This document shows positions 40,777 through 59,857 of a DNA stretch of 64,000 nt, one piece after another (within the stretch, counting starts at the first letter, position 1; every line of letters starts with the position of its first letter). Position numbers and translations under genes: made by a program. Source of the DNA: a virus; IMG/VR virus record IMGVR_UViG_3300025880_000014, positions 2,458 through 66,457 of that record; one strand, 5' to 3'. The notes below the pieces were generated by a model. The model saw only the letters and a list, made by a program, of their open reading frames with translations, searched no databases and was not told the origin of the DNA.

Positions 40777-41370
40777 TTATTTGTAATGTCCTCCTCCTAG
40801 CCATAAGACAAAAGATTTTCTAGTACCTTTAGTTACGGGTTTAACTGAGTGTAACATATAACTTGGAAATAAGACTACATTTCCTTTTCCTCGAGGAGCG
40901 GTCAATACATTTGTATCTAGAGATTCTCCACCTAGCCAAAAGCATAAATCTCCACCTTCGTATTCATTACTATCAGACAATTGAACAGTAATAGATACCT
41001 TTCTAATAGATAAATTCTTATCTCCAACGTCTTGGTGCCAATCATATTTACCAAACTCAGACGCTTCATATTCAGTATATTGAATTAGCTCAGGAGCAGT
41101 ATGTAAATCGAAATTCCATAGGGTTTGATTTGCTTCAGTTGCCATGGCAATTAATTTTTCATAAAGCCATGCCCATTCTTCGCTCTGTGGAATCCATTTA
41201 ATATTAGATTTTCTGTCTTCTGTTTCTCCACCTTGAGTTTCTGCTCGAACGTATTCAATATTAGCAACCCCTTGCTCAATACTTCTTAATTCTTCAGCTG
41301 AAAATCCTTGATCAAACCAGTAATACTGTTGAGCTTCGTTTTGTTTTGGTTCAAATGTAAAATTATTCAT
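40777..41370 (-). CDS. 2OG-Fe(II) dioxygenase (prolyl hydroxylase / PKHD-like)
   Basis: YDWHQD...RKVSITVQLS...YEGGDL...LFPSYMLHSVKPVTKGTRKS, giving HxD...H...R. Confidence 0.9.
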   Translation of the reverse strand: MNNFTFEPKQNEAQQYYWFDQGFSAEELRSIEQGVANIEYVRAETQGGETEDRKSNIKWIPQSEEWAWLYEKLIAMATEANQTLWNFDLHTAPELIQYTEYEASEFGKYDWHQDVGDKNLSIRKVSITVQLSDSNEYEGGDLCFWLGGESLDTNVLTAPRGKGNVVLFPSYMLHSVKPVTKGTRKSFVLWLGGGHYK

Positions 41371-43216
41371 CTTCTCTATATGTTATATTTACTGCACCTT
41401 CTTCTTCACCAAATCTAGATCTTGCGTTAATAGGCCATTGTGGATCCTCTTCATATGCCCAATCATGCTGACCTAATTCTTCAAATCTTTCTTTAATTCT
41501 TTCATTATATCTTGAAGCGATTGTACGTGTTCTTCTTTGTATATCTGCTCTAGATAGATCATGTGTATTTCTATGACCTTGATTACTATATAAAAATTGA
41601 ATATAGCTTAACTTAGGTATCTTACACATGATAGTGTTTAAGAATGTTCTAATAATTAATTCGTAATCATCAACAACTGTTAAACTTCTATTATGTCCTC
41701 CGATTGCAAAGTATGTAGATCTTCTCCACGCTCTAATGTGATTAGGAACTCCAACAATGTGTCTAATTGTTTTTGGATTAATATTCTGTTGATTTGCAGG
41801 ACTTAGCATTCTACCTTGATATTCTTCTTCTCTATAATTACCATATCCTAATGCAAAACCAGGACCGTATTTTTGATTTTCCCATTGTTCATTTACTTCT
41901 GCAGTATCACCGTAAAAGAATCCGCATTCAGGGTGTTTTTGTGCGGCGTTATGTAAATCCTGTGCGCATGTTACTGCGAGTAAATCATCGTGATCTAGTT
42001 CTGCGATAATATATCCTCTAGCCATTGCGTTTGCTCTCCACTTGACCTCTCCGATAATCCCACCTGATTTTTCTCTAAAATCGTATAGCTTAACTCTAGG
42101 GTCATTTGCTGCAATCTGCTCGGCAATCTTAAGTGTTTTACCACCATCAGTTGAATCGTTCATTAATACCCATTCCCAGTTGTCATACGTTTGAGCAGCG
42201 ACTGAGTTATATGTGTTTATTAACTTTTCACCTGTGTTATATATTGGAGTTGTAAAAGATATCATGCTATGATCGTCCATATTTGTCGGATCTAACATTG
42301 CATTTTCAGAAACATTATACGCAATATCTCCTACATTTTTTAAATCATTATCATTATCTATATTGATCCATTTTCTCCTAAATTGAAGAGGTAGTTTTGA
42401 TAGATATCTAAAATCAGAAGAACTCTTTCCTCGAGTTACTATTGCATCTGGTTTAAAACTGGATATTTTTTTTCTAATATCAGTATCATCCTTTGCATAT
42501 TTAACCTCTAAGTTGTCATCCTCGTAATCAAGTATTTTAGTAGTTTTCATTACTGGTTCTCCAGGTCCTATATATAAAATCCTAGGTAGTTTAGGTGTTG
42601 ACACTTTTTCTAATTCATTGTAATATGAAAGAATTTCATTAATCCAAACGAATGTATCTGGGTGGTTCTTATATACTTCTTCGATAAAGTAACCATCTGC
42701 TGCATAATCTGCTGTGAAACCATATTTTTCAAAAAGCTCTGATCTAAATAATATTTGAGCTATGTCTGTTTTTCTGAAACCAGTAGATTCTGGAGTAGAT
42801 TCTCTGTATTTTAATCCGGTAAAATCTTTACCATCAACTGCTTGTCCAACCATTATGATTTTCTTTTCAGAATTTACAGGTAGCATTACGAAATCCTCGA
42901 CTCTTTGATAAAATTCAGGATGCATTATATTGTCGTCATCTAATAAATAAAACCACGAATGATCTAAGCTCCTTATTAGACTGGTTGTTTCAGGGTACAT
43001 CATCCCGCCATGTTGTCCTTTAATAAAATGTATTGTTGTATTTGACTGATCTAAAATAGATAATAGATTCGCATCAATATCCTTCAGAGCACCTGTGTCA
43101 AACATAATGTGCCAATGTACCTCTACTCCTCTTGTTTTAGAAGTATCGAATACAGTTGGTTGTATTTTTAATAAATTAGATGTTCTAGTACATCTTGTGA
43201 TTACGTTAATTTTCAT
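41363..43216 (-). CDS. Tandem GT-A (GT2-like) glycosyltransferase, two catalytic domains
   Basis: N-domain FYLLDDDN and ADYAADG; C-domain SFTTPIYNT, WEWVLMNDST, ELDHDD, VVDDYEL. Confidence 0.85.
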   Translation of the reverse strand: MKINVITRCTRTSNLLKIQPTVFDTSKTRGVEVHWHIMFDTGALKDIDANLLSILDQSNTTIHFIKGQHGGMMYPETTSLIRSLDHSWFYLLDDDNIMHPEFYQRVEDFVMLPVNSEKKIIMVGQAVDGKDFTGLKYRESTPESTGFRKTDIAQILFRSELFEKYGFTADYAADGYFIEEVYKNHPDTFVWINEILSYYNELEKVSTPKLPRILYIGPGEPVMKTTKILDYEDDNLEVKYAKDDTDIRKKISSFKPDAIVTRGKSSSDFRYLSKLPLQFRRKWINIDNDNDLKNVGDIAYNVSENAMLDPTNMDDHSMISFTTPIYNTGEKLINTYNSVAAQTYDNWEWVLMNDSTDGGKTLKIAEQIAANDPRVKLYDFREKSGGIIGEVKWRANAMARGYIIAELDHDDLLAVTCAQDLHNAAQKHPECGFFYGDTAEVNEQWENQKYGPGFALGYGNYREEEYQGRMLSPANQQNINPKTIRHIVGVPNHIRAWRRSTYFAIGGHNRSLTVVDDYELIIRTFLNTIMCKIPKLSYIQFLYSNQGHRNTHDLSRADIQRRTRTIASRYNERIKERFEELGQHDWAYEEDPQWPINARSRFGEEEGAVNITYREDE

Positions 43217-43227
43217 TTAATGTGGTT

Positions 43228-44160
43228 TTATTGTTCAATGTCAAAAAAGAACATGTGGAAAAATCTTGCATTATCAATTGCATCTCCAAAGTATTCAGTT
43301 GCTGCGTGTAATTGCGATGAGTTAAATATTACTAGTCTATTATATACGTTTCCAATATCATCAATCTTTTCAAATTGAGTTCCATCGTAGAAGTTCATTT
43401 CTTTATTAGTACCTCTGAATGTATCTACGTATTCATCTCCCATTCTAGATTCTTGACCCGGAAACGATGAAATTCCTGTAACTTTACTTCGATACATTGC
43501 AGTTCCTGTTTGTGGAGGTGCGTCTGGGGTTAAGTAAACCATTGCAGCATACATTTGACTATCTACATGGTATACTATAGGTTGATCTGCTGTACAGAAT
43601 TGAAATACACCATTAGCGTATCCACCATTGTTCCAGTTTGTTATTTTTCTACCTAATACTTCTTCAAGTTTTTCCTTAGTGCCATCTATAATATATCTAG
43701 ATTGAGATCTTTGTCCTTTGTGATATTTAGACGGTAAAAACTCTAAATTATTCATAGCATATTCTCTGACTAAATCAGGATCTGCATAGAAATTATCAAC
43801 AACAATAACGTCTTTATCTGTTTTATTAAATCCAGATGAAGAAGCTGGCCATTTTGCTAAAGAAATAAGTTCAACTGGCGCTGCATTATTTAAACTAATC
43901 CATAGTTTTTTCGTAATATCTTCGTGTAGAATCATTATATTAAATCCTACATTTTCCGGAATTGTTCCTTTATAAAAAGAAAAAACATCTGGCCTTTTTT
44001 CCCATTCAATATTCAAGGATTTTCCATCTAATAGAACGTCAGTTACTATAGTATCTTTAGTTATTGAACCTACCCATCCTCTTGCGTACCAATATCCATC
44101 GGTGCCTTTTTTAATAGAATCAATGTTTAATTTTACATTGTTTAAATTAGTTTCGTGCAT
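43228..44160 (-). CDS. 2OG-Fe(II) dioxygenase-like protein (DUF6445-like) with an extra N-terminal domain
   Basis: VVDNFYADPD.VRE, YHVD...AAMVYLTP...GT, YNRLVIF...LHA, R.FHMFF. Confidence 0.75.
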   Translation of the reverse strand: MHETNLNNVKLNIDSIKKGTDGYWYARGWVGSITKDTIVTDVLLDGKSLNIEWEKRPDVFSFYKGTIPENVGFNIMILHEDITKKLWISLNNAAPVELISLAKWPASSSGFNKTDKDVIVVDNFYADPDLVREYAMNNLEFLPSKYHKGQRSQSRYIIDGTKEKLEEVLGRKITNWNNGGYANGVFQFCTADQPIVYHVDSQMYAAMVYLTPDAPPQTGTAMYRSKVTGISSFPGQESRMGDEYVDTFRGTNKEMNFYDGTQFEKIDDIGNVYNRLVIFNSSQLHAATEYFGDAIDNARFFHMFFFDIEQ

Positions 44161-44177
44161 TACTTTAAATTTTAATA

Positions 44178-44206
44178 ATTATACATTAAATGTTTGATTT
44201 GTTTAT
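44178..44206 (-). promoter_or_regulatory. Putative class 2 promoter ATAAAC-N17-TATAAT (overlapping an ATATATA late-type motif)
   Basis: 18 nt upstream of the oxygenase ATG, just after the terminator. Confidence 0.6.
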
Positions 44207-44213
44207 ATATTAC

Positions 44214-44244
44214 AAAAAAAAGGATCCCAATGGGATCCTTTTTT
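44214..44244. terminator. Bidirectional intrinsic terminator A8-GGATCCC-AAT-GGGATCC-T6
   Basis: Perfect stem flanked by A and T tracts, after collagen A. Confidence 0.85.
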
Positions 44245-44265
44245 AATATTAAGTATGTGAGTTGA

Positions 44266-46860
44266 TTATATTTGCCCTTTGAGGCCTCCACCAGCGCCTC
44301 CGGTTTGCGTAACTAATCCATTAACGAATGTGACATTGTGTCCCGTACTAAAGTAAATGGTTTCACTAATCCCACTAGTTGGTCCGTTAGTTCCTTGAGA
44401 TCCTCGAGGACCCTTTACTCCCGCAGGACCAAGTTGGCCCGTATTTCCAGTAAATCCTTTATAACCTTGTGCTCCATTGGTACCTTTAGCTCCTGGAGCT
44501 CCTTTAGCTCCTTGAGAACCATTATTACCCTTAAGACCCTGTGGCCCTCTTGGTCCGGTGCTACCATTTAGTCCTTTATAACCTGTTGGTCCTACTAGCC
44601 GTGCTCCTTGTGGTCCTCTATATCCAACTCCTAGACTACTACCAGTAGTTCCTTGGAATCCTCGAACTGTTCCAGTTGGTCCTTTATAGCCGGTAAGTCC
44701 TTTAAATCCTGTATAGCCTGTAATAGTAGATCCAGTGGTTCCTTTTAAACCCTGTGGCCCGACATATCCTTGAACTCCTTTTGGACTTGCTCCAGTATTA
44801 CCTTGTGCTCCTTGAGGTCCAGTATATCCTTTTGCTCCTCCTGGTTGTGATCCTTTAAGACCTTGATCTCCCTGAACACCAATAAATCCAATATACCCCT
44901 TAGGCATTGCTCCTTTAGCACCCTGATTTCCTTGGGCTCCTTGTGGTCCTCTATGTCCAGTTGGAGAATCTCCAATCGGTCCGGTGTTACCATTTAGTCC
45001 TTTATAACCTGTAACTCCTTTATATGAGGTTGGACGTACACCTTGAGTTCCCTGTGGTCCTCTTGGTCCAGTGCTTCCGGTTGGTTGTGCTCCTTTATCT
45101 CCTTGAGTACCTTGTGCTCCTTGTGGTCCTCTTGATCCTCCGGGCTGTGCTCCTTTATTTCCTTGGAATCCTCTTGGTCCTGTTACTCCAATAAATCCTT
45201 TTGGCTGAGCTCCTGTATATCCTTGAACTCCTTGAGCTCCTTGAACTCCTCTAAATCCTGTTGGATTTGCTCCTTGGAAACCTCTTTCTCCATTAATTCC
45301 TGTGTAACCGGTTGCTCCTGTTGGTGAAGATCCTTGAACTCCTCTATAACCAGTTGCTCCAATAAATCCAATATACCCCTTTGGCATTGCTCCTTTTAAT
45401 CCTTGGAAACCTCTTGGTCCTGTTGGTCCAGTTGGCGAAGTTGGTCTAGCTCCTTGGAAACCTCTTGGTCCCGTATTTCCAGGATCACCGATAATTGCGT
45501 CATATGCAGGTCCTGTTGGTCCTGTATATCCTGTTGGTCCGTTTGGTCCTATGTGTCCTTTTGGACTTGCTCCGATATTACCCTGTGCTCCTTGAGATCC
45601 TTTAAGACCAGTATATCCCTTTGGACTTGGTCCTGTATATCCTGTTGGTCCGTTTACTCCTTTATCTCCTTGGAATCCTCTATTAGTACTTCCTTGAGAT
45701 CCTCTAATACCCTGTACTCCTTGAAACCCTCTTGGTCCTGTTGGTGAATTACCAATAGCTCCTTGAAAACCTCTTGGTCCAGGATCTCCTGTTTGAGCAG
45801 CTGGCGTACTTCCAGTATTTCCTTGAAAACCTCTTTCTCCGTTTAATCCTTTGTCTCCAACTGGATTTGCTCCTTGTGCTCCTTTAAAACCAGGATAACC
45901 TTCAGCTCCTTGAAAACCTTTTGGACTATTTCCAACGTCTCCTTGAAAACCTCTATCTCCGTTTAATCCTTTGTCTCCAACTGGATTTGCTCCTTGTGCT
46001 CCTTTAAAACCAGGATGACCTTCAGCTCCTTGGAAACCTTTTGGTGAATCACCAACATTTCCTTGAAAACCTCTGTCTCCAGTTTGTCCTACTTGTGCAG
46101 TTTGAGTTGAACCCTGTGCTCCTTTTAGTCCGGTAGCACCCTGTGAACCTTTATGTCCTTTTTGATTTGTACCTGCAGAACCTTGAAATCCTACATGTCC
46201 AACAAAACCAGTTGCTCCACCTGGATTTAAACCCGTAGTACCTTGATCTCCTTGAAAACCTCTGAAACCAGTTGCTCCTGTTAATTGATCTCCCTGAAAC
46301 CCTCTTGGTCCATCAGGTCCAATATCACCAACGTAAGCTGTAATTACATTACCCTGTGATCCAGTTGAACCTTGATCTCCTTTTATTCCTTTAAGACCAT
46401 TAGTTATTTTACCTGCATCTCCATCTGTTCCTTGATTTCCTCTAAAACCTTCTGGTCCTTCTGGTGAATCTCCAATTGTTCCTTGGAATCCTCTAAAACC
46501 TTGATCAGCAGTACCTTTATTTCCTTGAAAACCTCGATCTCCTTGAAAACCTATATTACCTTCATAACCTTGATGTCCTTGTGGACTGTCTCCTTGAAAA
46601 CCTCTGAAACCAGTATCTCCAACAGGTTCTAAACCTGCAGATCCTTGAACTCCTTTATCTCCTTGAAAACCTCTATCTCCTTGAAAACCTTGAGCTCCAA
46701 CAATACCTTGAAAACCTTGATCTCCTTGAAAACCTTGAGCTCCAACAATACCTTGGTCTCCCTGGTCTCCTTTCAATTCAGGATAGTTATTAGCATCAAA
46801 GTTACCAGTATGTAAGGGAGTTTCTCCCCCTACAAGTGATCCTGTATTTAATTTTGCCAT
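44266..46860 (-). CDS. Collagen-like fibre protein, chain A (864 aa), with periodic interruptions
   Basis: Gly-X-Y from aa 31 to about 828, with 34 one-residue-short interruptions. Confidence 0.9.
45841..46080. repeat. 120-bp tandem duplication in collagen A (40 aa = 14 triplet equivalents)
   Basis: 45841-45960 vs 45961-46080: 110/120 identical by manual comparison. Confidence 0.9.
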
Positions 46861-46900
46861 GTTATTTTTATTCTTTTTTTATATATAATTAACTTATTGG

Positions 46901-49558
46901 TTATTGGATAAATCCGTTTGAAACAATATAGCCTGTTCCATTATCGTCTGTGAAAAATCCGTTAAAACCATTACCTATAGATCCACTTCCATGATAACCT
47001 TGTGGTCCTCTTGGTCCTGTTGGTCCATATCCGACTGGTCCCATACTTCCAGTTAATCCTCTTGCTCCTGCTGTTCCAGCTCCTCCGCCAGATCCTTGGA
47101 ATCCTCTTGGTCCTGTTGATCCATTTGCTCCTTGATATCCGACTGATCCTACTATCTGATTTCCTTGTGCTCCTGTTGCACCCTGGGCTCCTGGTATTCC
47201 TGTATATCCTTGAGGTCCTCTTGCTCCTTGAACTCCGTTTGGTCCTTTATATCCTGTTGGTCCATTATTACCTTGTGGTCCTCTTGACCCCGTTGGTCCT
47301 GTTGAACCTGTAGCTCCCTGTGGTCCCGTATTTCCTTGTGATCCCTGTGGACCAGTTGGTCCTTTATAACCTCCACCTCCGGCGGATCCGGATCCTCCTT
47401 GATATCCTCTTGGTCCTGTATTACCAGTGGCTCCTTGTGCACCTTGGAATCCTGATATTCCTTTGTTTCCAGTGGCTCCTTGTGTTCCTCTATCTCCCAC
47501 TGCCGAAGTAGTTCCAGTAAGTCCTTTATTACCAATAAATCCAGTATAACCTTTTGCTCCAGTTACTCCTTGTGCTCCAGTTGATCCCTGTGCTCCTTGA
47601 TTTCCTTTAGCTCCAGTATTTCCCTGTGCTCCTGTTAATCCAGTTGCTCCTTTTAATCCAGTATATCCAGTTACTCCCTGTGCTCCTTGATTTCCTTGTG
47701 ATCCGTTAACTCCTGTTTTACCAATAAATCCAGTATAACCTGTTGCTCCAGTTCCTCCTTGTGAACCGTTAACTCCAGGATAACCAGTTGGTCCCGTTGG
47801 TCCTTGATTTCCAACGGCTCCAGTTCCTCCAGTTGCTCCTTTAGCTCCAACAAGTCCAGTATATCCTTTTGGTCCGGTTGCACCCTGTGCTCCTGTAAAT
47901 CCAGTAGGTCCTGTTGAACCTTTAGCTCCCTGTGCTCCTTGTGCTCCTTTTACATTAGTAAATCCTTGAGGTCCCGTTGGCCCTTGAGGACCGGTGTTAC
48001 CAACCGCAGATGTTGTTCCTGTTAATCCTTTAAAACCAGTAGCTCCTTTTGCTCCTTGTGCTCCTTGTACTCCTGTTAATCCTTTAAAACCAGTAGCTCC
48101 TTTTGCTCCTTGTGCTCCTTGTGCTCCTTTAGGTCTTTGAGATCCCTGAGGTCCCTGAGCTCCTTTTGCTCCTTGAGAACCTTTATTACCAGTAGCTCCT
48201 TTAGCTCCTATTGCTCCCTGGAATCCTCTTTCACCAAGTGAACCTTGATTTCCGATAACACCCTGGGGTCCAGTTGATCCCTGTGCTCCTTGATTTCCTT
48301 TTACTCCTTCAAATCCTGTTGAACCAACAATTCCTATATAACCAGTATCTCCTTTGAAACCGGTAAATCCTGTAGATCCTTTAGCACCCTGTGCTCCAGT
48401 AACTCCTTGGAATCCCTTTGGTCCCGTAACTCCTTGTGGTCCTCTTCCACCAGCTCCGCCAGTTAATCCTTGATAACCAGTTGCTCCAATATTACCTTTA
48501 GCTCCTTGATTTCCTTTAGCTCCAGTATCTCCTTTAAGTCCGTTAGATCCTGTAATACCAACATACCCAGTAGAACCTGTAGCTCCTGTTGCTCCTTGAT
48601 AACCAGTTGCTCCAATATTACCTTTAGCTCCTTGATTTCCTTTAGCTCCAGTATCTCCTTTAAGTCCGTTAGATCCTGTAATACCAACATACCCAGTAGA
48701 ACCTGTAGCTCCAGTATCTCCTTGATAACCTGTTGCTCCAGTAGATCCTTGCGCTCCTTGAGATCCAGTACTTCCTTTATCTCCTAAAAGACCTTGAAAT
48801 CCTCTTTCACCAGGATCTCCTGGTAAAGAATCCGAAGCAGTTGCTCCTTTAAATCCTTTTTGTCCTGTTGAACCTTTAGCTCCCTGAGATCCTTTAACTC
48901 CATTAGTTCCAGGTAATCCTTCAAAACCGGTAGATCCTTTAGATCCCTGTGCTCCATCAACTCCGGTAAATCCTTTTAAACCGGTTGAACCTTGTGATCC
49001 TTTATTTCCTTTAACTGATGTTGCTCCTTTTGCTCCTTGGAATCCTCTTTCTCCAGTATCTCCTTGTGTACCTTGTGTACCTTTAATACCGACAGAACCT
49101 TGACTTCCTTGAAAACCTCTTTCTCCGTTAATTCCTTTTACACCCTGTGCTCCAGTAAAACCTTGGAATCCTTGAAGTCCAATAGAACCTTGATCGCCGA
49201 CTTGTCCTTGATAACCATTAGAACCATTAGGACCTAATATACCTGTTATTCCTTTTTCTCCTCTAATTCCAGTAGCTCCGGTAAAACCTTGAAGACCAGT
49301 AGATCCTTGATTACCTTTACTACCAGTAGATCCTTGATCACCTTGACTACCTTGATAACCCCCAGTTCCAACGAAACCTTGATTACCTGTATCACCTTGA
49401 TGACCGACACTACCGTCGGATCCAACAGATCCTTGGGATCCTTGAGATCCCAATTCACCGTTCGGTCCAATAAGCTGAGGAAAATTCGTGCTATTAAGGT
49501 TACCACTGTGTAATACGAGATTACCGTCTAACGTAGTACCTAAGATAAATTTTGCCAT
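46901..49558 (-). CDS. Collagen-like fibre protein, chain B (885 aa)
   Basis: Gly-X-Y from aa 31 to about 859 (277 triplet equivalents). Confidence 0.9.
48017..48124. repeat. 54-bp tandem duplication in collagen B ([15 protein letters not shown])
   Basis: Identical run starting at 48017 and 48071. Confidence 0.8.
48471..48722. repeat. 126-bp tandem duplication in collagen B (14 triplets)
   Basis: 48471-48596 vs 48597-48722: 123/126 identical. Confidence 0.9.
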
Positions 49559-49593
49559 GTTATTATTTTTATATTTTTATTTGTTTTATATTG

Positions 49594-52467
49594 TTATCCA
49601 ATATTTACACCGTTTTGGATAGTACGTACTCCACGCGTATGAAATATTTGACCGCTAAATCCTCCGGTTGCATTATTACCTTGATAACCCTGTGGTCCTC
49701 TTGCTCCGGTACCAGATCCACCCTGGACTCCTTGATAACCTTGTGGTCCTCTTGCAGGTGCAGGCTGTCCTCCAGCGCCTTGATAACCTTGAGGTCCTGA
49801 TGTTGCGGAAGCTCCTTTTGCTCCTTGTGTTCCTTGTGCTCCTGTTGCTCCTTTTAAACCTTGAGGTCCTCTTGGTCCTGCACCACCATTAAGTCCTACA
49901 TAACCTTGTGCTCCACGTGCTCCAACGTTTCCGTTTGCACCTTGTACTCCTTGAGGTCCTGTATATCCTTGAACTCCTTGAGCTCCCTGGGTTCCTTGAG
50001 CTCCTCTTACAGTACCTGCAGGTCCAATAAAACCTTTAAGTCCGGTTGAACCTTGTGGTCCTCTTACTCCCTGTGGCCCTGTTGGTCCTGTATATCCTTT
50101 TGGTCCTGTTGCTCCTTGGAATCCTCTGTGACCTGGCGCACCACTATAACCTTGTGGTCCAGTTAGTCCTTTATAACCCTGTACTCCTTGAGTTCCTCTT
50201 GCAGCCGCAGTTCCCTGTGGTCCAGTTATTCCTTTATCACCAGTAGCTCCTTGTGGTCCTCTTGGTCCAGTAGATCCTTTAAAACCTGTATCTCCTTTTG
50301 CTCCTTGTGCTCCTCTAATTCCTTGTGGTCCAAGATCTCCAGTAGGTCCAGTTGCTCCTTTAGGTCCGATATATCCGATATATCCTTTTGGTCCAGTTGC
50401 TCCTTGAGGTCCTTTAATTCCTTTTGCTCCAGTTGCTCCTTGATTACCCTTTGGTCCAGTTATTCCCTGAACTCCTTTTGCTCCTTGAACACCAATTGTT
50501 CCCTGAGCTCCTTGAGGTCCAGTATTTCCTTGAGGTCCTCTAATAGTTCCAGTACTTCCGGTTGCTCCTTGAAAACCTTTATTACCAGTAGCTCCGGTTG
50601 CTCCTTGATTACCTTTAATTCCTTGGAATCCTCTGTCTCCAGTTGCTGCAGTAGATCCTTTAAGACCTTGTGCTCCTCTAACTCCTTGATTTCCTTGGAA
50701 TCCTCTTGGTGCAGCAGTTCCCTGTGCTCCAGTATTTCCTTGAAATCCAATCTTTCCAGTTGGTCCTAAATCACCAATTGCTCCGGTATTTCCTTGAACT
50801 CCAATAAATCCTTTATCTCCTTTAATTGCACTTGGTGCGATATATCCAGTATCTCCCTGGAATCCTCTGTCTCCAGTTGCTCCTTGATTACCCTGTGCTC
50901 CTGTTACTCCAGTATATCCTTTTGCACCAGTAGTACCTTTAGCTCCTTGGAATCCTCTTGGTCCGCTAGATCCTTGATGTCCTCTTTCACCAGCATCTCC
51001 TTGAACTCCTTTTGAACCTTGTGGTCCAACTGCTCCAACAGATCCCTGTGCTCCTATTATTCCAGTGTTTCCTTGAACTCCAGTTGCTCCAGTTGCTCCT
51101 TTATCTCCAGTTGCTCCTTGAGGTCCTGTATAACCTTTTGCTCCTTGTGCTCCAAGAGGTCCTGTTAAACCTTTAGCTCCTTGATCTCCTTTGAAACCTT
51201 GATCTCCTTTAAGACCAACATTTCCAATAACACCTTGGTTTCCTTGAAAACCTCTTGGACCAGTGTTACCCTGTGCTCCAGTTGATCCTTTTAAACCTTT
51301 AGCTCCTTGATCTCCTTTGAAACCTTGATCTCCTTTAAGACCAACATTTCCAATAACACCTTGGTTTCCTTGAAAACCTCTTGGACCAGTGTTACCCTGT
51401 GCTCCAGTTGATCCTTTTAAACCTTTAGCTCCCTGTGATCCTTTAAAACCTCTTTCACCAATGATACCATCGGCTCCAGTAGATCCTTGATAACCTGTTG
51501 CTCCAGTAGATCCTTGTGTTCCTATTACTTTATTAATACCAGCGTCTCCTTGAGTTCCTTGATTTCCTTGAAAACCTCTGTCTCCTACGGGTCCGTTAAT
51601 ACCTGTTGTTCCTTTAATTCCTTTGTCTCCTTGGAATCCTCTGGCTCCATTTGAACCATTATTTCCTTTTGCTCCTTGAGGTCCTGTAAATCCAACGTCT
51701 CCTTGTGCTCCTCTGTTTCCATCAAGTCCTTTATAACCTGTTGCTCCAGTTGAACCTTTAAAACCTTGATCTCCGATTACTCCATCAGAACCTTGATCAC
51801 CTTTATAACCGGTAACCCCTTGATTTCCCTGAACTCCAATAGGTCCAGTAACTCCTTTGTTTCCGATAGATCCTTGGAATCCTCTGGCACCGTCTACGCC
51901 TGTTAAACCCTTAGTACCTTGAGTACCTTTAGTTCCTTGGTTTCCTTGGAATCCTCTTTCACCTTGATTTCCAACAATACCTTTAGATCCTTGAAATCCT
52001 CTTTCACCTTTAGCCCCAGTAGTACCTGAAATACCAATATCTCCTACTAATCCTTTACTACCACGTGATCCTTCACTACCAGTATCTCCTACTAATCCAG
52101 TATTTCCGAGAGAACCTTTATCTCCACGAAAACCTTCATCACCGGTATTTCCTTTTACTCCTTTTAAAGAAGAGAAATCACTAGGTGTAAAATTACCAGG
52201 TCTTAATATTAGATTGCCACCGATTGTTGAATCAGCCTTAAAGCTTCCGCCACCATCAAAAATACCACCCGCTATAATTGCGGAATCAGTACTCCTAATA
52301 GTTAACACATTCCCCGCAGGGAATGTGTTTAACTCTTCTAGGTAAGACGGCGTATAGACGATAGCTGAATCTTGGTCAATTCCTGCTCTGTTCGAGTTTT
52401 CATCGATCTGAGCCTGGAATTCTCCGGTAGATTGTACTAGTTTTATCGCTATTTTATTAAATGCCAT
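49594..52467 (-). CDS. Collagen-like fibre protein, chain C (957 aa) with a 102-aa N-terminal domain
   Basis: Gly-X-Y from aa 103 to about 932 (276 triplet equivalents). Confidence 0.9.
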   Translation of the reverse strand: MAFNKIAIKLVQSTGEFQAQIDENSNRAGIDQDSAIVYTPSYLEELNTFPAGNVLTIRSTDSAIIAGGIFDGGGSFKADSTIGGNLILRPGNFTPSDFSSLKGVKGNTGDEGFRGDKGSLGNTGLVGDTGSEGSRGSKGLVGDIGISGTTGAKGERGFQGSKGIVGNQGERGFQGNQGTKGTQGTKGLTGVDGARGFQGSIGNKGVTGPIGVQGNQGVTGYKGDQGSDGVIGDQGFKGSTGATGYKGLDGNRGAQGDVGFTGPQGAKGNNGSNGARGFQGDKGIKGTTGINGPVGDRGFQGNQGTQGDAGINKVIGTQGSTGATGYQGSTGADGIIGERGFKGSQGAKGLKGSTGAQGNTGPRGFQGNQGVIGNVGLKGDQGFKGDQGAKGLKGSTGAQGNTGPRGFQGNQGVIGNVGLKGDQGFKGDQGAKGLTGPLGAQGAKGYTGPQGATGDKGATGATGVQGNTGIIGAQGSVGAVGPQGSKGVQGDAGERGHQGSSGPRGFQGAKGTTGAKGYTGVTGAQGNQGATGDRGFQGDTGYIAPSAIKGDKGFIGVQGNTGAIGDLGPTGKIGFQGNTGAQGTAAPRGFQGNQGVRGAQGLKGSTAATGDRGFQGIKGNQGATGATGNKGFQGATGSTGTIRGPQGNTGPQGAQGTIGVQGAKGVQGITGPKGNQGATGAKGIKGPQGATGPKGYIGYIGPKGATGPTGDLGPQGIRGAQGAKGDTGFKGSTGPRGPQGATGDKGITGPQGTAAARGTQGVQGYKGLTGPQGYSGAPGHRGFQGATGPKGYTGPTGPQGVRGPQGSTGLKGFIGPAGTVRGAQGTQGAQGVQGYTGPQGVQGANGNVGARGAQGYVGLNGGAGPRGPQGLKGATGAQGTQGAKGASATSGPQGYQGAGGQPAPARGPQGYQGVQGGSGTGARGPQGYQGNNATGGFSGQIFHTRGVRTIQNGVNIG
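51165..51432. repeat. 126-bp perfect tandem duplication in collagen C (14 triplets)
   Basis: 51165-51290 vs 51291-51416: 126/126 identical, plus a 16-bp third partial copy. Confidence 0.9.
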
Positions 52468-52521: not shown

Positions 52522-55500
52522 TTAATCGAATGAGAATGTAATGTCTCCATTTGCATCTCTTTCAATTCTTGCCGTTGGGTTACCGTTAGCATCTTCGAAA
52601 TAAATAGCTTTATCATTGGCGATTGTTATTGAATCTCCATCAAATGCTCCAGTTTCTCCTTGGAATCCTTGATCTCCTTTAGCTCCAGTTAAACCCTGTG
52701 CTCCAGTATCTCCTTTGAAACCTTGATCTCCTTTGAATCCTTGGTCTCCTTTAGCTCCAGTTAAACCCTGTGCTCCAGTATCTCCTTTGAAACCTTGATC
52801 TCCTTTGAATCCTTGGTCTCCTTTAATACCTTGAATACCATCGTCTCCTTTAGTACCTTGAACTCCTTGAATACCTTGAATACCATCGTCTCCTTTGAAT
52901 CCTTGATCTCCTTTTAAACCAGTATCTCCTTTGAAACCTTGATCTCCTTTAAGACCTTGAATACCTTGAATACCATCGTCTCCTTTAGTACCCTGAACTC
53001 CAATAACTCCTTGTTCCCCTTGGAAACCTTGAATACCTTGCTCTCCAGTATCTCCTTTGAAACCTTGATCTCCTTTAAGACCTTGAATACCTTGAATACC
53101 ATCGTCTCCTTTAGTACCTTGAACTCCTTGAATACCTTGAATACCATCGTCTCCTTTGAATCCTTGATCTCCTTTTAAACCAGTATCTCCTTTGAAACCT
53201 TGATCTCCTTTTAAACCAGTATCTCCTTTGAAACCTTGATCTCCTTTAAGACCTTGAATACCTTGAATACCATCGTCTCCTTTAGTACCCTGAACTCCAA
53301 TAACTCCTTGTTCCCCTTGGAAACCTTGAATACCTTGCTCTCCAGTATCTCCTTTGAAACCTTGATCTCCTTTGAAACCTTGATCTCCTTTAGCTCCTAA
53401 AGTACCTGATTCTCCTTGGAAACCTTGATCTCCTTTAAGACCTTGAATACCTTGAATACCATCGTCTCCTTTAAGACCTGTATCTCCTTTAAGACCAGTT
53501 TCTCCTTGGAATCCTTGATCTCCTTTAGCTCCAGTATCTCCCTGGAAACCTTGAATACCTTGTTCTCCTTGATCTCCTTTAAGACCATCAATACCTTGGA
53601 AACCTTGATCTCCTTTAGCTCCAGTATCTCCTTGGAAACCTTGATCTCCTTGGAAACCTTGGAAACCTTGATCACCCTGTGCTCCAATTTTCATTGGTGT
53701 GAAAGATACAATAATTTGACCATTTGCTGATGGGATGTTCGCTGCGTACGCGTCGTTAGTCATGTGTTCCGCAGAAGAAGTACCACCATCGTAATTACTG
53801 TTTGAACCACCAACTCTTACCATGTCTACTCTAAGATCTCCTCTTCCGGCAGAACCTAAAATAATGGAAGCGTTTGATGCTTCATATAAATGATATTTAC
53901 TAGAGTCTCCATTCTTAGAAACTTTTACGTAAATTCTATCGTAACCATCAGATACCATATTTGTAAATAAAGAATTCATGTGGTTGATATCTTGCAATCC
54001 GTTTGCGATATCTGAGAACCACCATTCTTGAGAACCTCCATAAATAAATGAAGATGCTTCAGTATGTCCTAATTGATTAACGTTTGTGTATTTATTATCT
54101 GAGAAGGTAATACCATCATAAACAACTGATAAACCACCAGCGTTACCTACAGTACCTTGGAATCCTTGATCTCCTTGATCTCCTTTAAGACCTTGGAAAC
54201 CTTGATCTCCTTGGAAACCTTGGAAACCTTGATCTCCAGTTTCTCCTTGAATACCTTGTTCTCCTTGATCTCCTTTAAGACCAGTATCTCCTTGGAAACC
54301 TTGATCACCTTGGAAACCTTGATCACCTTGGAAACCTTGGAAACCTTGATCTCCTTTAGCTCCTAATGTACCATCAACTCCTTGGAAACCTTGATCTCCT
54401 TTAGCTCCAGTATCTCCTTGGAATCCTTGATCTCCTTTAGTACCCTGAACTCCGATAACTCCTTGTTCTCCAGTATCTCCTTTGAAACCTTGAATACCTT
54501 GCTCTCCAGTATCTCCTTTGAAACCTTGATCTCCTTTAAGACCTTGAATACCTTGCTCTCCTGTATCTCCTTTAGTACCCTGAACTCCAATAACTCCTTG
54601 TTCCCCTTGGAAACCTTGAATACCTTGCTCTCCTGTATCTCCTTTAAGACCAGTTTCTCCTTGGATACCTTGGATACCTTGTTCTCCAGTATCTCCTTTA
54701 AAACCTTGATCTCCTTTAAGACCTTGAATACCTTGAATACCATCGTCTCCTTTAAGACCTGTATCTCCTTTAAGACCAGTTTCTCCTTGGATACCTTGGA
54801 TACCTTGTTCTCCAGTATCTCCTTTAAAACCTTGATCTCCTTTAAGACCTGTATCTCCTTTAAGACCAGTTTCTCCTTGGATACCTTGCTCTCCTGTATC
54901 TCCTTTAAAACCTTGATCTCCTTTAAGACCTTGAATACCTTGTTCTCCAGTGTCTCCTTTGAATCCTTGATCTCCTTTAAGACCAGTTTCTCCTTGGATA
55001 CCTTGGATACCTTGTTCTCCAGTATCTCCTTTAAGACCAGTTTCTCCTTGGATACCTTGAATACCTTGTTCTCCAGTATCTCCTTTAGTACCCTGAACTC
55101 CAATAACTCCTTGTTCCCCTTGGAAACCTTGAATACCTTGCTCTCCTGTATCTCCTTTAAGACCTGTATCTCCTTGGAATCCTTGATCTCCTTTAAGACC
55201 AGTTTCTCCTTGGATACCTTGGATACCTTGTTCTCCAGTATCTCCTTTGAAACCTTGATCTCCTTTAAGACCTTGAATACCTTGTTCTCCAGTATCTCCT
55301 TTAAAACCTTGATCTCCTTTAAGACCTTGAATACCTTGCTCTCCTGTATCTCCTTTAAGACCTGTATCTCCTTGGAATCCTTGATCTCCTTTAAGACCAG
55401 TTTCTCCTTGGATACCTTGTTCTCCAGTATCTCCTTTAAGACCAGTTTCTCCTTGGATACCTTGAATACCTTGTTCTCCAGTATCTCCTTTAGTACCTAC

Positions 55501-56361
55501 AGTACCTTGAACTCCGATAACTCCTTGTTCCCCTTGGAAACCTTGAATACCTTGTTCTCCAGTGTCTCCTTTGAATCCTTGATCTCCTTTAAGACCAGTT
55601 TCTCCTTGGATACCTTGGATACCTTGTTCTCCAGTATCTCCTTTAAGACCAGTTTCTCCTTGGATACCTTGAATACCTTGTTCTCCAGTATCTCCTTTAA
55701 AACCTTGATCTCCTTTAAGACCTTGAATACCTTGTTCCCCAGTATCTCCTTTAGTACCTACAGTACCTTGAACTCCGATAACTCCTTGTTCCCCTTGGAA
55801 ACCTTGAATACCTTGATCTCCTTTAAGACCAGTTTCTCCTTGAATACCTTGTTCTCCTTGATCTCCTTGGATACCTTGGTCTCCTTGGATACCTTGATCT
55901 CCTTTTAATCCTTGATCTCCTTTAATACCTTGAATACCATCGTCTCCTTTGAAACCTTGATCTCCTTGAAGACCTTGATCTCCTGTATCTCCTTTAGTAC
56001 CTACAGTACCTTGAACTCCGATAACTCCTTGTTCCCCTTGGAAACCTTGAATACCTTGATCTCCTTTAAGACCAGTTTCTCCTTGAATACCTTGTTCTCC
56101 TTGATCTCCTTTAAGACCAGTTTCTCCTTTAAGACCAGTTTCTCCTTTGAAACCTTGATCTCCTTTAATACCTTGAATACCTTGTTCACCGGTATCTCCT
56201 TTAAAACCTTGATCTCCTTGAAGACCTTGATCTCCTTGAAAACCTTGAACCCCATCAATACCCTGATCTCCTTGGAAACCTTGATCTCCTTGTGTACCTT
56301 GATATCCGGATCCTTGATCTCCCTGAGGACCTGCGGTAGAAATATATGCTGAATATGCCAT
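52522..56361 (-). CDS. Collagen-like protein D (1279 aa): two Gly-X-Y tracts (about aa 11-741 and 893-1240) around a ~150-aa globular insert
   Basis: Built from GDQ/GFQ/GLK/GDT/GEQ/GIQ modules; almost Pro-free. Confidence 0.9.
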   Translation of the reverse strand: MAYSAYISTAGPQGDQGSGYQGTQGDQGFQGDQGIDGVQGFQGDQGLQGDQGFKGDTGEQGIQGIKGDQGFKGETGLKGETGLKGDQGEQGIQGETGLKGDQGIQGFQGEQGVIGVQGTVGTKGDTGDQGLQGDQGFKGDDGIQGIKGDQGLKGDQGIQGDQGIQGDQGEQGIQGETGLKGDQGIQGFQGEQGVIGVQGTVGTKGDTGEQGIQGLKGDQGFKGDTGEQGIQGIQGETGLKGDTGEQGIQGIQGETGLKGDQGFKGDTGEQGIQGFQGEQGVIGVQGTVGTKGDTGEQGIQGIQGETGLKGDTGEQGIQGETGLKGDQGFQGDTGLKGDTGEQGIQGLKGDQGFKGDTGEQGIQGLKGDQGFKGDTGEQGIQGIQGETGLKGDQGFQGDTGLKGDTGEQGIQGFQGEQGVIGVQGTKGDTGEQGIQGIQGETGLKGDTGEQGIQGIQGETGLKGDQGFKGDTGEQGIQGLKGDQGFKGDTGEQGIQGETGLKGDTGLKGDQGFKGDTGEQGIQGIQGETGLKGDTGLKGDDGIQGIQGLKGDQGFKGDTGEQGIQGIQGETGLKGDTGEQGIQGFQGEQGVIGVQGTKGDTGEQGIQGLKGDQGFKGDTGEQGIQGFKGDTGEQGVIGVQGTKGDQGFQGDTGAKGDQGFQGVDGTLGAKGDQGFQGFQGDQGFQGDQGFQGDTGLKGDQGEQGIQGETGDQGFQGFQGDQGFQGLKGDQGDQGFQGTVGNAGGLSVVYDGITFSDNKYTNVNQLGHTEASSFIYGGSQEWWFSDIANGLQDINHMNSLFTNMVSDGYDRIYVKVSKNGDSSKYHLYEASNASIILGSAGRGDLRVDMVRVGGSNSNYDGGTSSAEHMTNDAYAANIPSANGQIIVSFTPMKIGAQGDQGFQGFQGDQGFQGDTGAKGDQGFQGIDGLKGDQGEQGIQGFQGDTGAKGDQGFQGETGLKGDTGLKGDDGIQGIQGLKGDQGFQGESGTLGAKGDQGFKGDQGFKGDTGEQGIQGFQGEQGVIGVQGTKGDDGIQGIQGLKGDQGFKGDTGLKGDQGFKGDTGLKGDQGFKGDDGIQGIQGVQGTKGDDGIQGIQGLKGDQGFKGDTGEQGIQGFQGEQGVIGVQGTKGDDGIQGIQGLKGDQGFKGDTGLKGDQGFKGDDGIQGIQGVQGTKGDDGIQGIKGDQGFKGDQGFKGDTGAQGLTGAKGDQGFKGDQGFKGDTGAQGLTGAKGDQGFQGETGAFDGDSITIANDKAIYFEDANGNPTARIERDANGDITFSFD
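52650..53685. repeat. Low-complexity repeats (second collagen tract of D)
   Basis: Repeated ccttgaataccatcgtctcc and aaaccttgatctcc blocks. Confidence 0.85.
54150..56330. repeat. Low-complexity minisatellite of 9-bp-multiple modules (first collagen tract of D)
   Basis: Recurrent near-identical blocks such as ccttgatctcctttaagacc and ccttgttctccagtatctcc. Confidence 0.85.
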
Positions 56362-57279: not shown

Positions 57280-57882
57280 ATGATAATAATTATGATAAAT
57301 AGTATAATGAATAGTATTACTAAGAAGATAGTTAGAGATTACATATATTTTAGAGAAACATTAGATGACGTAAAATCTATTTCTAGTGATGCGGAAGGTA
57401 TGTTCAGAGACGCAATGCACGAGCATAACGAGGTTGCACTAACAGCTCTCACTCCACCGGAAGGAGCACCTCCTATTAAAAAAATTGATGAAGAACTTGT
57501 TGTAAAATTTGAAGACAAGCTCTTTAAAAAGCTTTTTAGAAAGATAGCGGTATTATGCCATCCAGATAAATTAGATGATTCCTACTCTGAAAGAGAAGCT
57601 GCATTTTTAAAAAAATGCTATGAAGATCTTAATACTTCTAACCAAACATATGATTGGGGATTGTTGTTAAAGGTTGCTATGGAACTGGATGTTGAAATTC
57701 CGGAATTGAGCGATGAGCAATTTATTAATATTAATAATAATATAGAATCTATTAAAAATACTATTAACCAGTTTGAAGGATCTATGGCTTATAAATGGTA
57801 TACCCTCTCTGACACTGATGCCAAGAAAGGGTATTTAGAAAGCTGTGCTTCTATATTTATGAATAGTTTAAAGAATCGTTAA
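57280..57882 (+). CDS. Divergent J-domain protein (internal HPD motif)
   Basis: KKLFRKIAVLCHPDKL...FLKKCYEDLN; only substantial plus-strand gene; start may be M6 or M10. Confidence 0.65.
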   Translation: MIIIMINSIMNSITKKIVRDYIYFRETLDDVKSISSDAEGMFRDAMHEHNEVALTALTPPEGAPPIKKIDEELVVKFEDKLFKKLFRKIAVLCHPDKLDDSYSEREAAFLKKCYEDLNTSNQTYDWGLLLKVAMELDVEIPELSDEQFININNNIESIKNTINQFEGSMAYKWYTLSDTDAKKGYLESCASIFMNSLKNR

Positions 57883-58661
57883 ACGTCCCACTTATCAGTT
57901 AGATGGCATCTTACATAAACAGGTGCCTGATACGCAATACCATTAGGATATTCTGATTGCAATCTCGTATAAAAGTCTACATCTTCTGACGTGTCTTTAG
58001 AGATAACATCTCTCCATTTTGTTGATAAATTAGCTTTGTGCATAAATAACCAGGGTGCCATTATCTGTCTGCCTGGTTTTATTTGAATTGGCTTCCATGC
58101 CTCTGGTAAACCTTCTATCTGAATTGCCGGTGTTTCTGAAGGATCTAATATAGCATTCCCATTAGTTAGCTCAGTTGAAACGGACTCATGATCAAACCAT
58201 GAGGTATTTATCCACCAATCTTTTTCTGGGTTTGCGTTAAAATATAAAAGAGATGTCATCGTTGCATTTGGCATTAAAAAATCATCTGAATCCATATACA
58301 TTACAACGTGGCCGGTTGCTGCAGCTGCACCTAGTCTTCTACCGAATCCTCTATAATATCTTCCTTTATCTTCTATTTCCTCGTACATTTGAGGAGTATC
58401 TGTTCTATCGAAATATATTAGTTTTATATTTGGTGTGTTCTTGTGTGATCTATTAAATAGTTGATGTGTTTTATTACACCCATCTGCTACTATAATAAGT
58501 TCGCAGTTTTTATATGTTTGGTTTTGAAAACTTTCGACTGCCCTGTGAAATTTACCAATAGGATCTTTTCTTGAATTTTCGTAGTTTTCTAGGTTTACTT
58601 GCATCACTATAGATATTTTTATCTTGTTTAGTGATTCGAATATTTCTTTAAAATTGCTCAT
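57879..58661 (-). CDS. GT-A (GT2-like) glycosyltransferase
   Basis: RAVESFQNQTYKNCELIIVADG, VVMYMDSDD, SEDVDF. Confidence 0.85.
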   Translation of the reverse strand: MSNFKEIFESLNKIKISIVMQVNLENYENSRKDPIGKFHRAVESFQNQTYKNCELIIVADGCNKTHQLFNRSHKNTPNIKLIYFDRTDTPQMYEEIEDKGRYYRGFGRRLGAAAATGHVVMYMDSDDFLMPNATMTSLLYFNANPEKDWWINTSWFDHESVSTELTNGNAILDPSETPAIQIEGLPEAWKPIQIKPGRQIMAPWLFMHKANLSTKWRDVISKDTSEDVDFYTRLQSEYPNGIAYQAPVYVRCHLTDKWDV

Positions 58662-59857
58662 TATTTATATAGGTTTGTTTTCCAATTATATTCATAAGAT
58701 AATTCATGTGTTCCTGGTTTAAATAAATTATCTATTAACTTTTTATATGTATCTACGAGATCTACGTTAGTTGACAAATAACGGTCTAATACTTTTTTAC
58801 TGTTTTCATTATATTGATCTAGATTATTGTCATGTTCCTCAAGTGCCAATTTTAATTGATCGGCTCCTTGTGATATATTAAATCCTTCATAATAATATCC
58901 TGCATCCTTTATCATGTCTGCGTTGTGCACTATAGGGTACCCGAAATAGAGTGCGTCTAGGTATGCATAGTTTAATGGGTTTTCCCATTGGTGTGATAAG
59001 ACTATGTCTGTTTCACTTGCTAAGAACGTCGATACTGGGTACCTTCCAACATACTTTATTTTGTTATCTGGAGAGTTAACTATGTCGAAATTCTTAATCA
59101 TCGCTAAATAGTATTTATTCTTTAGTAATTTCTTGCCAGATCCTATGTATATTTGTTTAAACGCGTTTTTACCAGATTCTCTAAAAACTCTTTCAGCAAT
59201 CATGATAGTCATCAATGAATATTTAACAACATTTATATTTGGTTCCATTACAGATAGCTTTTTATCTTTAGCATCCTTTGGAATATATCCCGGAATCAAT
59301 TTGCCGGCACGTTTTAGTAATTTATTAAATTCATCAAGCGGCTCAGGGTCCCATATGAAAGGAACTGTTTTTATCTGAGAATCCTCTTGTCTGTATATTG
59401 TTTTAAAGTATTCTAGGTTTTGATATTCCTGTTGAGGTATTACCCATGTTTCGTCGTGGCCTCCGTCCCATGAAGGAACCATTGACTCGGTAATTGTATC
59501 AAACATTACTCGTTCCATGTCAACTACATAACTATTTCCACATTGGTATTTTACTACTTTTAAATTTGGATTTTTGCTTTTCATTAAAGATATCCTACTT
59601 GTAGGCAAAGAAGCACCTACCATAAACATTAAGTCTATCTCATTCTCCATCGCTGTGAATTTTGCGATTTTATATTTATTATAATCCCAGTTTACTTTAG
59701 TTAAATCAGAAACATTCTTAGCTGCGTCTAAAATATAAACATCAAGTCCTTCTATTTGGTTTAACATTTTAGATAGGTTCAGCGCATTTAATTTAATGCC
59801 GTTGATCCACATGCTTTCATATTCCTTTGTTAGAGATATTATAATTCCTACTTTCAT
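58661..59857 (-). CDS. DUF2827-like protein (predicted GT-B glycosyltransferase)
   Basis: WINGI..NA, VPFIWDP, VMEPNINVVK, VLSHQWENPLNYAYLDALYFGYPIVHN. Confidence 0.65.
   Translation of the reverse strand: MKVGIIISLTKEYESMWINGIKLNALNLSKMLNQIEGLDVYILDAAKNVSDLTKVNWDYNKYKIAKFTAMENEIDLMFMVGASLPTSRISLMKSKNPNLKVVKYQCGNSYVVDMERVMFDTITESMVPSWDGGHDETWVIPQQEYQNLEYFKTIYRQEDSQIKTVPFIWDPEPLDEFNKLLKRAGKLIPGYIPKDAKDKKLSVMEPNINVVKYSLMTIMIAERVFRESGKNAFKQIYIGSGKKLLKNKYYLAMIKNFDIVNSPDNKIKYVGRYPVSTFLASETDIVLSHQWENPLNYAYLDALYFGYPIVHNADMIKDAGYYYEGFNISQGADQLKLALEEHDNNLDQYNENSKKVLDRYLSTNVDLVDTYKKLIDNLFKPGTHELSYEYNWKTNLYK

Follow-up and report, generated by a model that had tools for sequence, protein, structure and literature searches.

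Three adjacent collagen-like genes of a marine T4-like phage as probable chains of one length-matched heterotrimeric fibre

To our knowledge, heterotrimeric collagens have been seen as peculiar to animals, while the collagen-like proteins of microbes and viruses have been treated as homotrimers. In vertebrate complement C1q, the A, B and C chains are encoded by adjacent genes, have matched helical lengths with an interruption at a common position, and assemble into an A-B-C heterotrimer. Animal collagens of types IV and IX likewise have matched chain lengths and aligned interruptions, and in designed A-B-C collagen peptides the register is set by axial pairs of Lys in the Y position with Asp or Glu in the X position. 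Known bacterial and phage collagen-like proteins are homotrimers; those that serve phages and prophages as tail fibres come from a single gene and often carry a C-terminal S74 chaperone. Here we analyze three adjacent collagen-like genes, designated A, B and C, in a 64,000-nucleotide (nt) window (positions 2,458 to 66,457) of the IMG/VR virus record IMGVR_UViG_3300025880_000014, which is 71.6 kb long and estimated to be 24% complete; the phage of this window is called W. Each of the three genes contains a tandem duplication of 14 triplets at the same place in the rod. On computational evidence, A, B and C are probably the chains of one length-locked B-C-A heterotrimeric fibre of a marine T4-like phage.

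The trio resembles C1q in that three different collagen-like chains with matched helical lengths are encoded by adjacent genes. The two systems differ in scale and in their termini: the C1q stalk is only ~80 residues long and its C-terminal gC1q head selects the chains, whereas the phage rod is ~840 residues long and its chains have no head domain in Pfam, share short terminal motifs, and include one that is a residue short at every seventh triplet. Matched lengths and aligned interruptions also recall types IV and IX, and axial pairs between Y-Lys and X-Asp/Glu recall the designed peptides; unlike these metazoan and synthetic heterotrimers, the phage collagen is viral and Pro-poor, and oxygenase and glycosyltransferase genes adjoin it. 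It shares with the phage and prophage tail-fibre proteins the use of phage-encoded Gly-X-Y rods as fibres, but A, B and C have no S74 domain and appear to need each other. In Pasteuria ramosa, genes for collagen-like proteins occur in triplets made up of three sequence groups in a fixed order and the same orientation (PMC13233619), and mixed trimers have been suggested for these proteins (PMC7743900). The likeness to the phage trio, three co-oriented adjacent collagen-like genes of distinct sequence groups, is one of gene arrangement, and the Pasteuria proteins, unlike those of the phage, are surface fibres of bacterial endospores. The literature searched yielded neither register, charge-pair or synchronised-indel evidence for the Pasteuria triplets nor a heterotrimeric phage collagen. 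The Pasteuria gene triplets are the nearest prokaryotic analogue, and C1q, the other animal heterotrimers and the designed A-B-C peptides are functionally closest.

Tandem duplications at a common position in three chains

Triplet maps and Pfam place A, B and C, with their long Gly-X-Y repeats, among the collagen triple helix repeat proteins; a Pfam scan of the three returned PF01391 (Collagen) and no other domain, the C-terminal Peptidase_S74 chaperone domain (PF13884) included. They share an N-terminal motif of ~30 amino acids (aa) and a short C-terminal motif, and chain C has an N-terminal extension of 102 aa. Triplet numbering begins at the first Gly that follows the conserved N-terminal motif, and a break of n residues takes up ceil(n/3) points on the resulting lattice, so that a 2-residue break in A makes one point. 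Chain A (44377-46770) has such a short triplet, mostly Pro-Lys/Thr/Val, at every seventh triplet, whereas B and C have few Gly-replacement triplets and no deletion matching A's short triplets. The Gly-replacement breaks of B and C coincide at triplets 71, 148-149, 162-163, 169 and 219, which lie on A's 7-triplet lattice. The helix of A comprises 798 residues versus 839 in each of B and C, yet the three have 278, 281 and 282 lattice points, respectively. Autocorrelation peaks at lags of 14, 21, 28 and 35 triplets, even in the unduplicated chains of a close relative (L011, below), and RGF[QK]G motifs hold preferred phases modulo 7.

Tandem Repeats Finder located one long repeat in each gene, with a period of 120 at 45817-46085 in A and of 126 at 48467-48761 in B and 51146-51451 in C. 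An earlier sequence-only reading of the window had described these as 14-triplet duplications, and exact counting reproduced the identities that it gave for the copies (Table 1); the C copies are identical over 136 nt. Its placement of the duplications at triplets 81-108 in A and 82-109 in B and C agrees with our lattice to within one triplet. Because a tandem copy can be rotated, the start of copy 1 may lie at 81-85 in A, 83-85 in B and 82-84 in C. The unit makes 14 lattice points in each chain: the 40-aa unit of A contains two 2-residue breaks (-PK and -PV), as the reading had held in equating it with the 42-aa units of B and C, and the charge signal described below needs these breaks as lattice points. 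Given one randomly placed 14-triplet duplication per chain, the probability of three starts within 2 triplets is about 3e-4. The in-register DNA identity of the B and C units is 52%, within the range of the other 13 rotations (48-64%); thus, the units are not copies of each other and the events were separate, as had been proposed. Near-perfect in-frame repeats were otherwise confined to one of 54 bp in B (48017-48128) and one of 45 bp in A (46661-46755), and neither corresponds to a length difference from relatives.

Table 1. Positions of the collagen-like genes, their duplications and downstream genes in the window
Feature	Position	Strand	Description
Duplication in A	45841-46080	-	two 120-bp copies, each of 40 aa and 14 lattice triplets; identity 110/120
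Duplication in B	48479-48730	-	two 126-bp copies, each of 42 aa; identity 123/126
Duplication in C	51181-51432	-	two 126-bp copies, each of 42 aa; identity 126/126
Chain A gene	44266-46860	-	864 aa, helix residues 31-828, 278 lattice triplets; open reading frame (ORF) and Pfam PF01391, E 2.9e-67
Chain B gene	46901-49558	-	885 aa, helix residues 31-869, 281 lattice triplets; ORF and Pfam PF01391, E 1.7e-115
Chain C gene	49594-52467	-	957 aa, helix residues 103-941, 282 lattice triplets; ORF and Pfam PF01391, E 2e-118
Gene D, fourth collagen-like gene	52522-56361	-	1279 aa, highly repetitive, globular insert; ORF and triplet map
2OG-Fe(II) oxygenase	40777-41370	-	Pfam; downstream of trio
GT2 glycosyltransferase	41363-43216	-	Pfam; downstream of trio
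DUF6445 protein	43228-44160	-	Pfam; downstream of trio; anchor gene for finding relatives

Copy states, rod lengths and charge register in related loci

Relatives were fetched by means of the DUF6445 anchor gene, which gave 62 viral and 52 metagenomic loci; L071, which equals L011 over the collagen trio, and L082, which comes from L009's contig range, were not counted as independent. The gene order C-B-A is kept in all trio-bearing relatives. All three duplications are present in L009 and L010 (anchor identity to W 96%; 99.7% identical to each other). L011 (anchor identity 94%) is shorter by exactly 40, 42 and 42 aa at the duplication sites, and these are the sole large indels in its alignments with A, B and C of W. 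In L074 (anchor identity 86%), B and C each have two nearly identical copies in tandem, and A has one copy only. The sequence-only reading had predicted that relatives would carry all or none of the duplications; this describes W, L009/L010 and L011, and L074 departs from it. In another pair of relatives, L081 exceeds L080 by a single block, of +120 aa in A and +126 aa in both B and C. On the lattice the block amounts to +42 triplets per chain, and in every chain it lies within an array of 7-triplet repeats, so that a synchronised change has occurred a second time, independently of the first.

The rods of 12 lineages range from 163 to 282 triplets, with an inter-chain correlation of r at least 0.995. 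The lattice lengths of A/B/C are 278/281/282 in W and L009, 264/267/269 in L011, 260/264/269 in L012, 258/262/267 in L083, 232/235/232 in L081, 220/225/222 in L072, 190/193/190 in L080, 190/195/198 in L016, 188/185/187 in L014 and 163/166/167 in L035. The chains are thus length-matched in 11 of the 12 lineages; the exception is L074, at 264/279/280. When B and C were permuted among phages, the within-phage spread was never as small as that observed (p at most 1e-5).

Several relatives carry additional segments. A globular insert of ~150-170 aa lies inside the helix of one chain, B or C, at L016:2882-7929, L072:2619-5510, L075:2491-5727, L083:1054-4308 and L014:4855-7200, and the flanking collagen parts of the insert-bearing chains sum to the length of their partners (for example, 84 + 101 triplets in B of L014 versus 188 in A and 187 in C). 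This arrangement would suit a mixed helix that continues past a looped-out domain. Chain A has a C-terminal extension of ~190-220 aa, beginning ...GPxCLIxGTQ, at L012:6903-9887, L014:7216-9507 and L083:6925-9888, which ends near ...ANGI[IV]THNRK in L014 and L083. These sequences bear a possible resemblance to Hint/intein splicing motifs; a Pfam scan of the relatives' globular inserts and long C-terminal tails matched Collagen only.

In a collagen triple helix, Lys or Arg in Y pairs axially with Asp or Glu in X one triplet on in the next, one-residue-staggered chain, and the offset from the trailing to the leading chain is two triplets, as known from KGE/KGD pairs and designed A-B-C peptides. 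We therefore correlated the Y charges of one chain with the X charges of another at 91 offsets from -45 to +45. The most negative offsets in W were +1 for B to C (score -16), +1 for C to A (-21) and +2 for A to B (-10), and the offset pattern in L011 was as in W. The summed B-C-A score of W at zero lattice shift was -47 (z -7.5). Shifting the lattices by up to 40 triplets gave -13.3 +/- 4.5, and not one of the ~6,500 shifted alternatives reached so low a score. The B-C-A register was also found in L009, L011, L081 and L080 (z -4.7 to -6.5). Among the 27 chain combinations, B-C-A was the best in W, L009 and L011, with homotrimers scoring -4 to -21 and same-chain charge pairs at or below background. 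The signal was lost when A's short triplets were not counted as lattice points, which supports the equation of 40 residues of A with 14 triplets.

The register extends to both sides of the duplications. The pair score of W was -22 upstream, -12 within the duplicated zone and -13 downstream, and no other of the 3,721 shift combinations tried downstream ranked above the in-register one; it is thus only the gain of the block by all three chains that preserves the register past triplet 110. In L074, the downstream scores were 0 for C to A and -1 for A to B as assembled, and -5 and -7 with A shifted by 14 triplets, the best of 61 shifts. Past the duplications, the register holds only when all three or none of them are present. 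In-register X/Y identity between the chains is not raised and is even depleted between A and B (z -3.5), so shared ancestry does not explain the register. Collinear paralogy between the chains, by which the register would merely have been inherited, was rejected on this ground. The sequence-only reading had argued that the match is maintained rather than just inherited, and that selection kept the chains matched in length and phase. Both views are supported, the first by cross-chain pairs at staggered offsets on either side of the duplications together with the lack of raised identity, and the second by the +42/+42/+42 case, the co-variation over 12 lineages and the downstream charge register.

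The trio of a distant relative, at L035:3732-8784, has 2-residue breaks in one chain and 4-residue breaks in another, at about the same 14-triplet spacing. Its best charge-pair order differs from B-C-A, with the B to A peak at +1 (z -5.3); chain names given by gene order may not be orthologous there.

Proposed assembly and competing explanations

We propose a fibre of ~280 triplets, which would be roughly 240 nm long at 0.286 nm per residue. Its chains would start in register directly after the N-terminal motif of 30 residues that they have in common. They would be wound with a stagger of one residue, B leading, C in the middle and A trailing, and each 2-residue short triplet of A would fill one lattice point. 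Axial salt bridges from Lys or Arg in Y to Asp or Glu in X of the next chain would set both composition and register. The weak 7/14-triplet repeat of each gene would allow slippage or unequal recombination between short direct repeats to add or remove blocks of 7n triplets. A length change in one chain would put everything downstream out of charge register, and this loss would favor genomes with the same block at the same lattice position in all three chains. The three unrelated 14-triplet duplications would then be a matched set that lengthens the rod by about 12 nm. That this is a natural non-animal A-B-C heterotrimer, with a salt-bridge register, synchronised length tuning in 7n-triplet steps and one chain residue-short at every seventh triplet, is a fuller claim, toward which we lean with less assurance.

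Each of the three proteins might instead form homotrimers, their equal lengths arising from side-by-side bundling or a common span on the virion without selection for register. We regard this as unlikely. It accords with the homotrimeric nature of known bacterial and phage collagen-like proteins; a pure length constraint would also yield co-varying lengths and synchronised inserts, and the periodic one-residue deletions of A are easier to accommodate when all three strands have them. Yet same-chain charge pairs are near background and the homotrimer scores of -8 to -21 are far weaker than the -47 of B-C-A, whereas the cross-chain peaks fall at exactly +1, +1 and +2, the geometry expected within one helix. 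Lengths also match better in lattice triplets than in residues, and in L016, L072 and L014 the collagen parts sum to the matched length despite a globular insert. A mutational coincidence is very unlikely in our judgment. Here, direct repeats spaced by 120 or 126 nt would make a hot spot in each gene, and linkage would carry the states together. Single-copy L011 does have direct repeats of ~30-40 nt at this spacing at the site in A and C, and weaker ones in B, which are a plausible substrate for unequal recombination. However, each L011 gene contains 21-27 comparable pairs of short direct repeats, which vary widely in position and spacing, and in B the pair at the site falls below threshold, so no unique hot spot forces the common site. 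The states are separable in L074, and recombination is evidently active, since the copies within a genome are more alike than orthologues: the C copies are identical at 126/126 positions within W and 121/126 within L074, against ~104-107/126 between W and L074. This indicates concerted evolution or repeated gain and loss. Copy identity is therefore no clock, and the values of 110/120, 123/126 and 126/126 bear out neither the earlier description of the duplications as recent nor an order of A, then B, then C. Chance recombination at hot spots would still have to produce the same size and lattice position in all three genes, the independent +42/+42/+42 change, lengths matched over 12 lineages and a downstream charge register that requires synchrony.

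There is, finally, a very small chance that one or more of the duplications, or their absence from L011 or L074, is an artefact of assembly from short-read metagenomes. Exact repeats of the size of the C copies are often mis-resolved, and the missing A copy of L074 may be a collapse, the downstream charge register there demanding 14 more triplets. The A copies, on the other hand, differ at 10 sites and the B copies at 3, so these are not artificial doublings; the same arrays occur in the independently assembled L009 and L010, and both L011 (all single) and W (all double) are self-consistent in charge register. The stretch, whole or in part, occurs in 18 public runs, which belong to 12 studies. 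In three separate studies, the unitigs branch and end at the repeat borders 48496, 48722 and 51194, and in one run, X1, the contig with the C repeat unit has a word depth of 81 versus 36-38 in the flanks (~2.2x), which fits real repeats. These runs are pre-assembled unitigs that break at repeats, and the number of copies per molecule and single-copy haplotypes are not readable from them. The duplication borders were also considered as a discriminator between one old and repeated events and set aside, because pre-existing flanking direct repeats give the same product. As to the A copies (45841-45960 and 45961-46080), their 10 differences are concentrated within the unit's first ~65 nt. It is copy 1 of W that stands apart, at 110-111/120 to copy 2 of W and to both copies of L009, which are 118-119/120 identical to one another; this suggests a later conversion or recombination patch.

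Several points weigh against a B-C-A heterotrimer with synchronised lengths. Every contig was assembled from short metagenome reads, a process in which exact repeats of 120-126 bp can be collapsed or expanded, and L074, at least in an assembly, has the duplications in two of three chains, B and C; it represents either a collapsed repeat or a real, mismatched, out-of-register variant. The relatives are phylogenetically linked, and the all-or-none pattern rests on few independent events. The final third of the rod has few charges and shows no clear offset; the charge signal comes from the preceding two thirds. B and C have nothing to match the residue that A lacks every 7 triplets, a deficit that a mixed helix would have to accommodate. 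Structure prediction with three N-terminal 90-residue pieces scored 0.38, compared with 0.02 for the best of 3 controls, but cannot separate hetero- from homotrimers. Of 78 solved complexes, 51 reached the mark used in these predictions, as did 2 of 108 mismatched pairs; at 0.60 or under, only 5 of the 78 did so, along with all 4 mismatches that passed. The prediction is a weak hint of triple-helix formation and lends the proposed fibre weak support.

If A, B and C do form one heterotrimer, they would provide a recombinant-friendly natural template for heterotrimeric collagen design, in which register appears to come from charge pairs and not from a large globular selection domain. They would also be a clean evolutionary case of compensatory length changes in three co-assembling genes, and a handle on how phages tune fibre length, in steps of 12 nm or more, presumably to the architecture of the host surface. 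Short triplets in a single chain raise a new structural question, namely, how a mixed helix tolerates asymmetric interruptions.

Genomic setting and candidate modifiers

The window has a G+C content of ~32% and includes a T4-type baseplate wedge gene. Four collagen-like genes lie in a row on the minus strand of W in the order D, C, B, A; gene D adjoins the trio but is outside the length-matched set. The spacers between C and B and between B and A are 35-40 nt, and promoter and terminator scans gave nothing better than in shuffled sequence. Close cultured relatives were not recovered: megablast of 41000-46000 against cultured phage records gave zero matches, and a search with the anchor protein found only distant cyanophage relatives (24-42% identity). 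Full-length B, searched against 5.8 billion proteins, yielded no orthologues, the result being swamped by generic collagen matches, which often carry PF13884, and residues 1-45 of B had no match in the same set. A scan of viral contigs with the N-terminal 102 aa of C recovered only three contigs already in our set.

The collagen genes are flanked (40777-44160 and 57879-59857) by genes for a 2OG-Fe(II) oxygenase, two GT2 glycosyltransferases, and DUF6445 and DUF2827 proteins, as assigned by Pfam. The DUF6445/GT2/oxygenase block is syntenic with the collagen trio in all related loci, and the products of this downstream block (40777-44160) are likely to be modifiers of the collagen. The chains of W contain 33-60 Pro per ~280 triplets and 66-91 Thr each. 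The Pro-poor viral rod is likely to be stabilised by other means, and it is conceivable from the gene content that glycosylated Thr or hydroxylated residues stabilise this Thr-rich helix. In many of the more distant relatives (L019-L034, L040-L044, L052 and L066-L068; anchor 53-55% identical), a single giant collagen-like ORF of 1794-1989 aa stands in the place of the trio.

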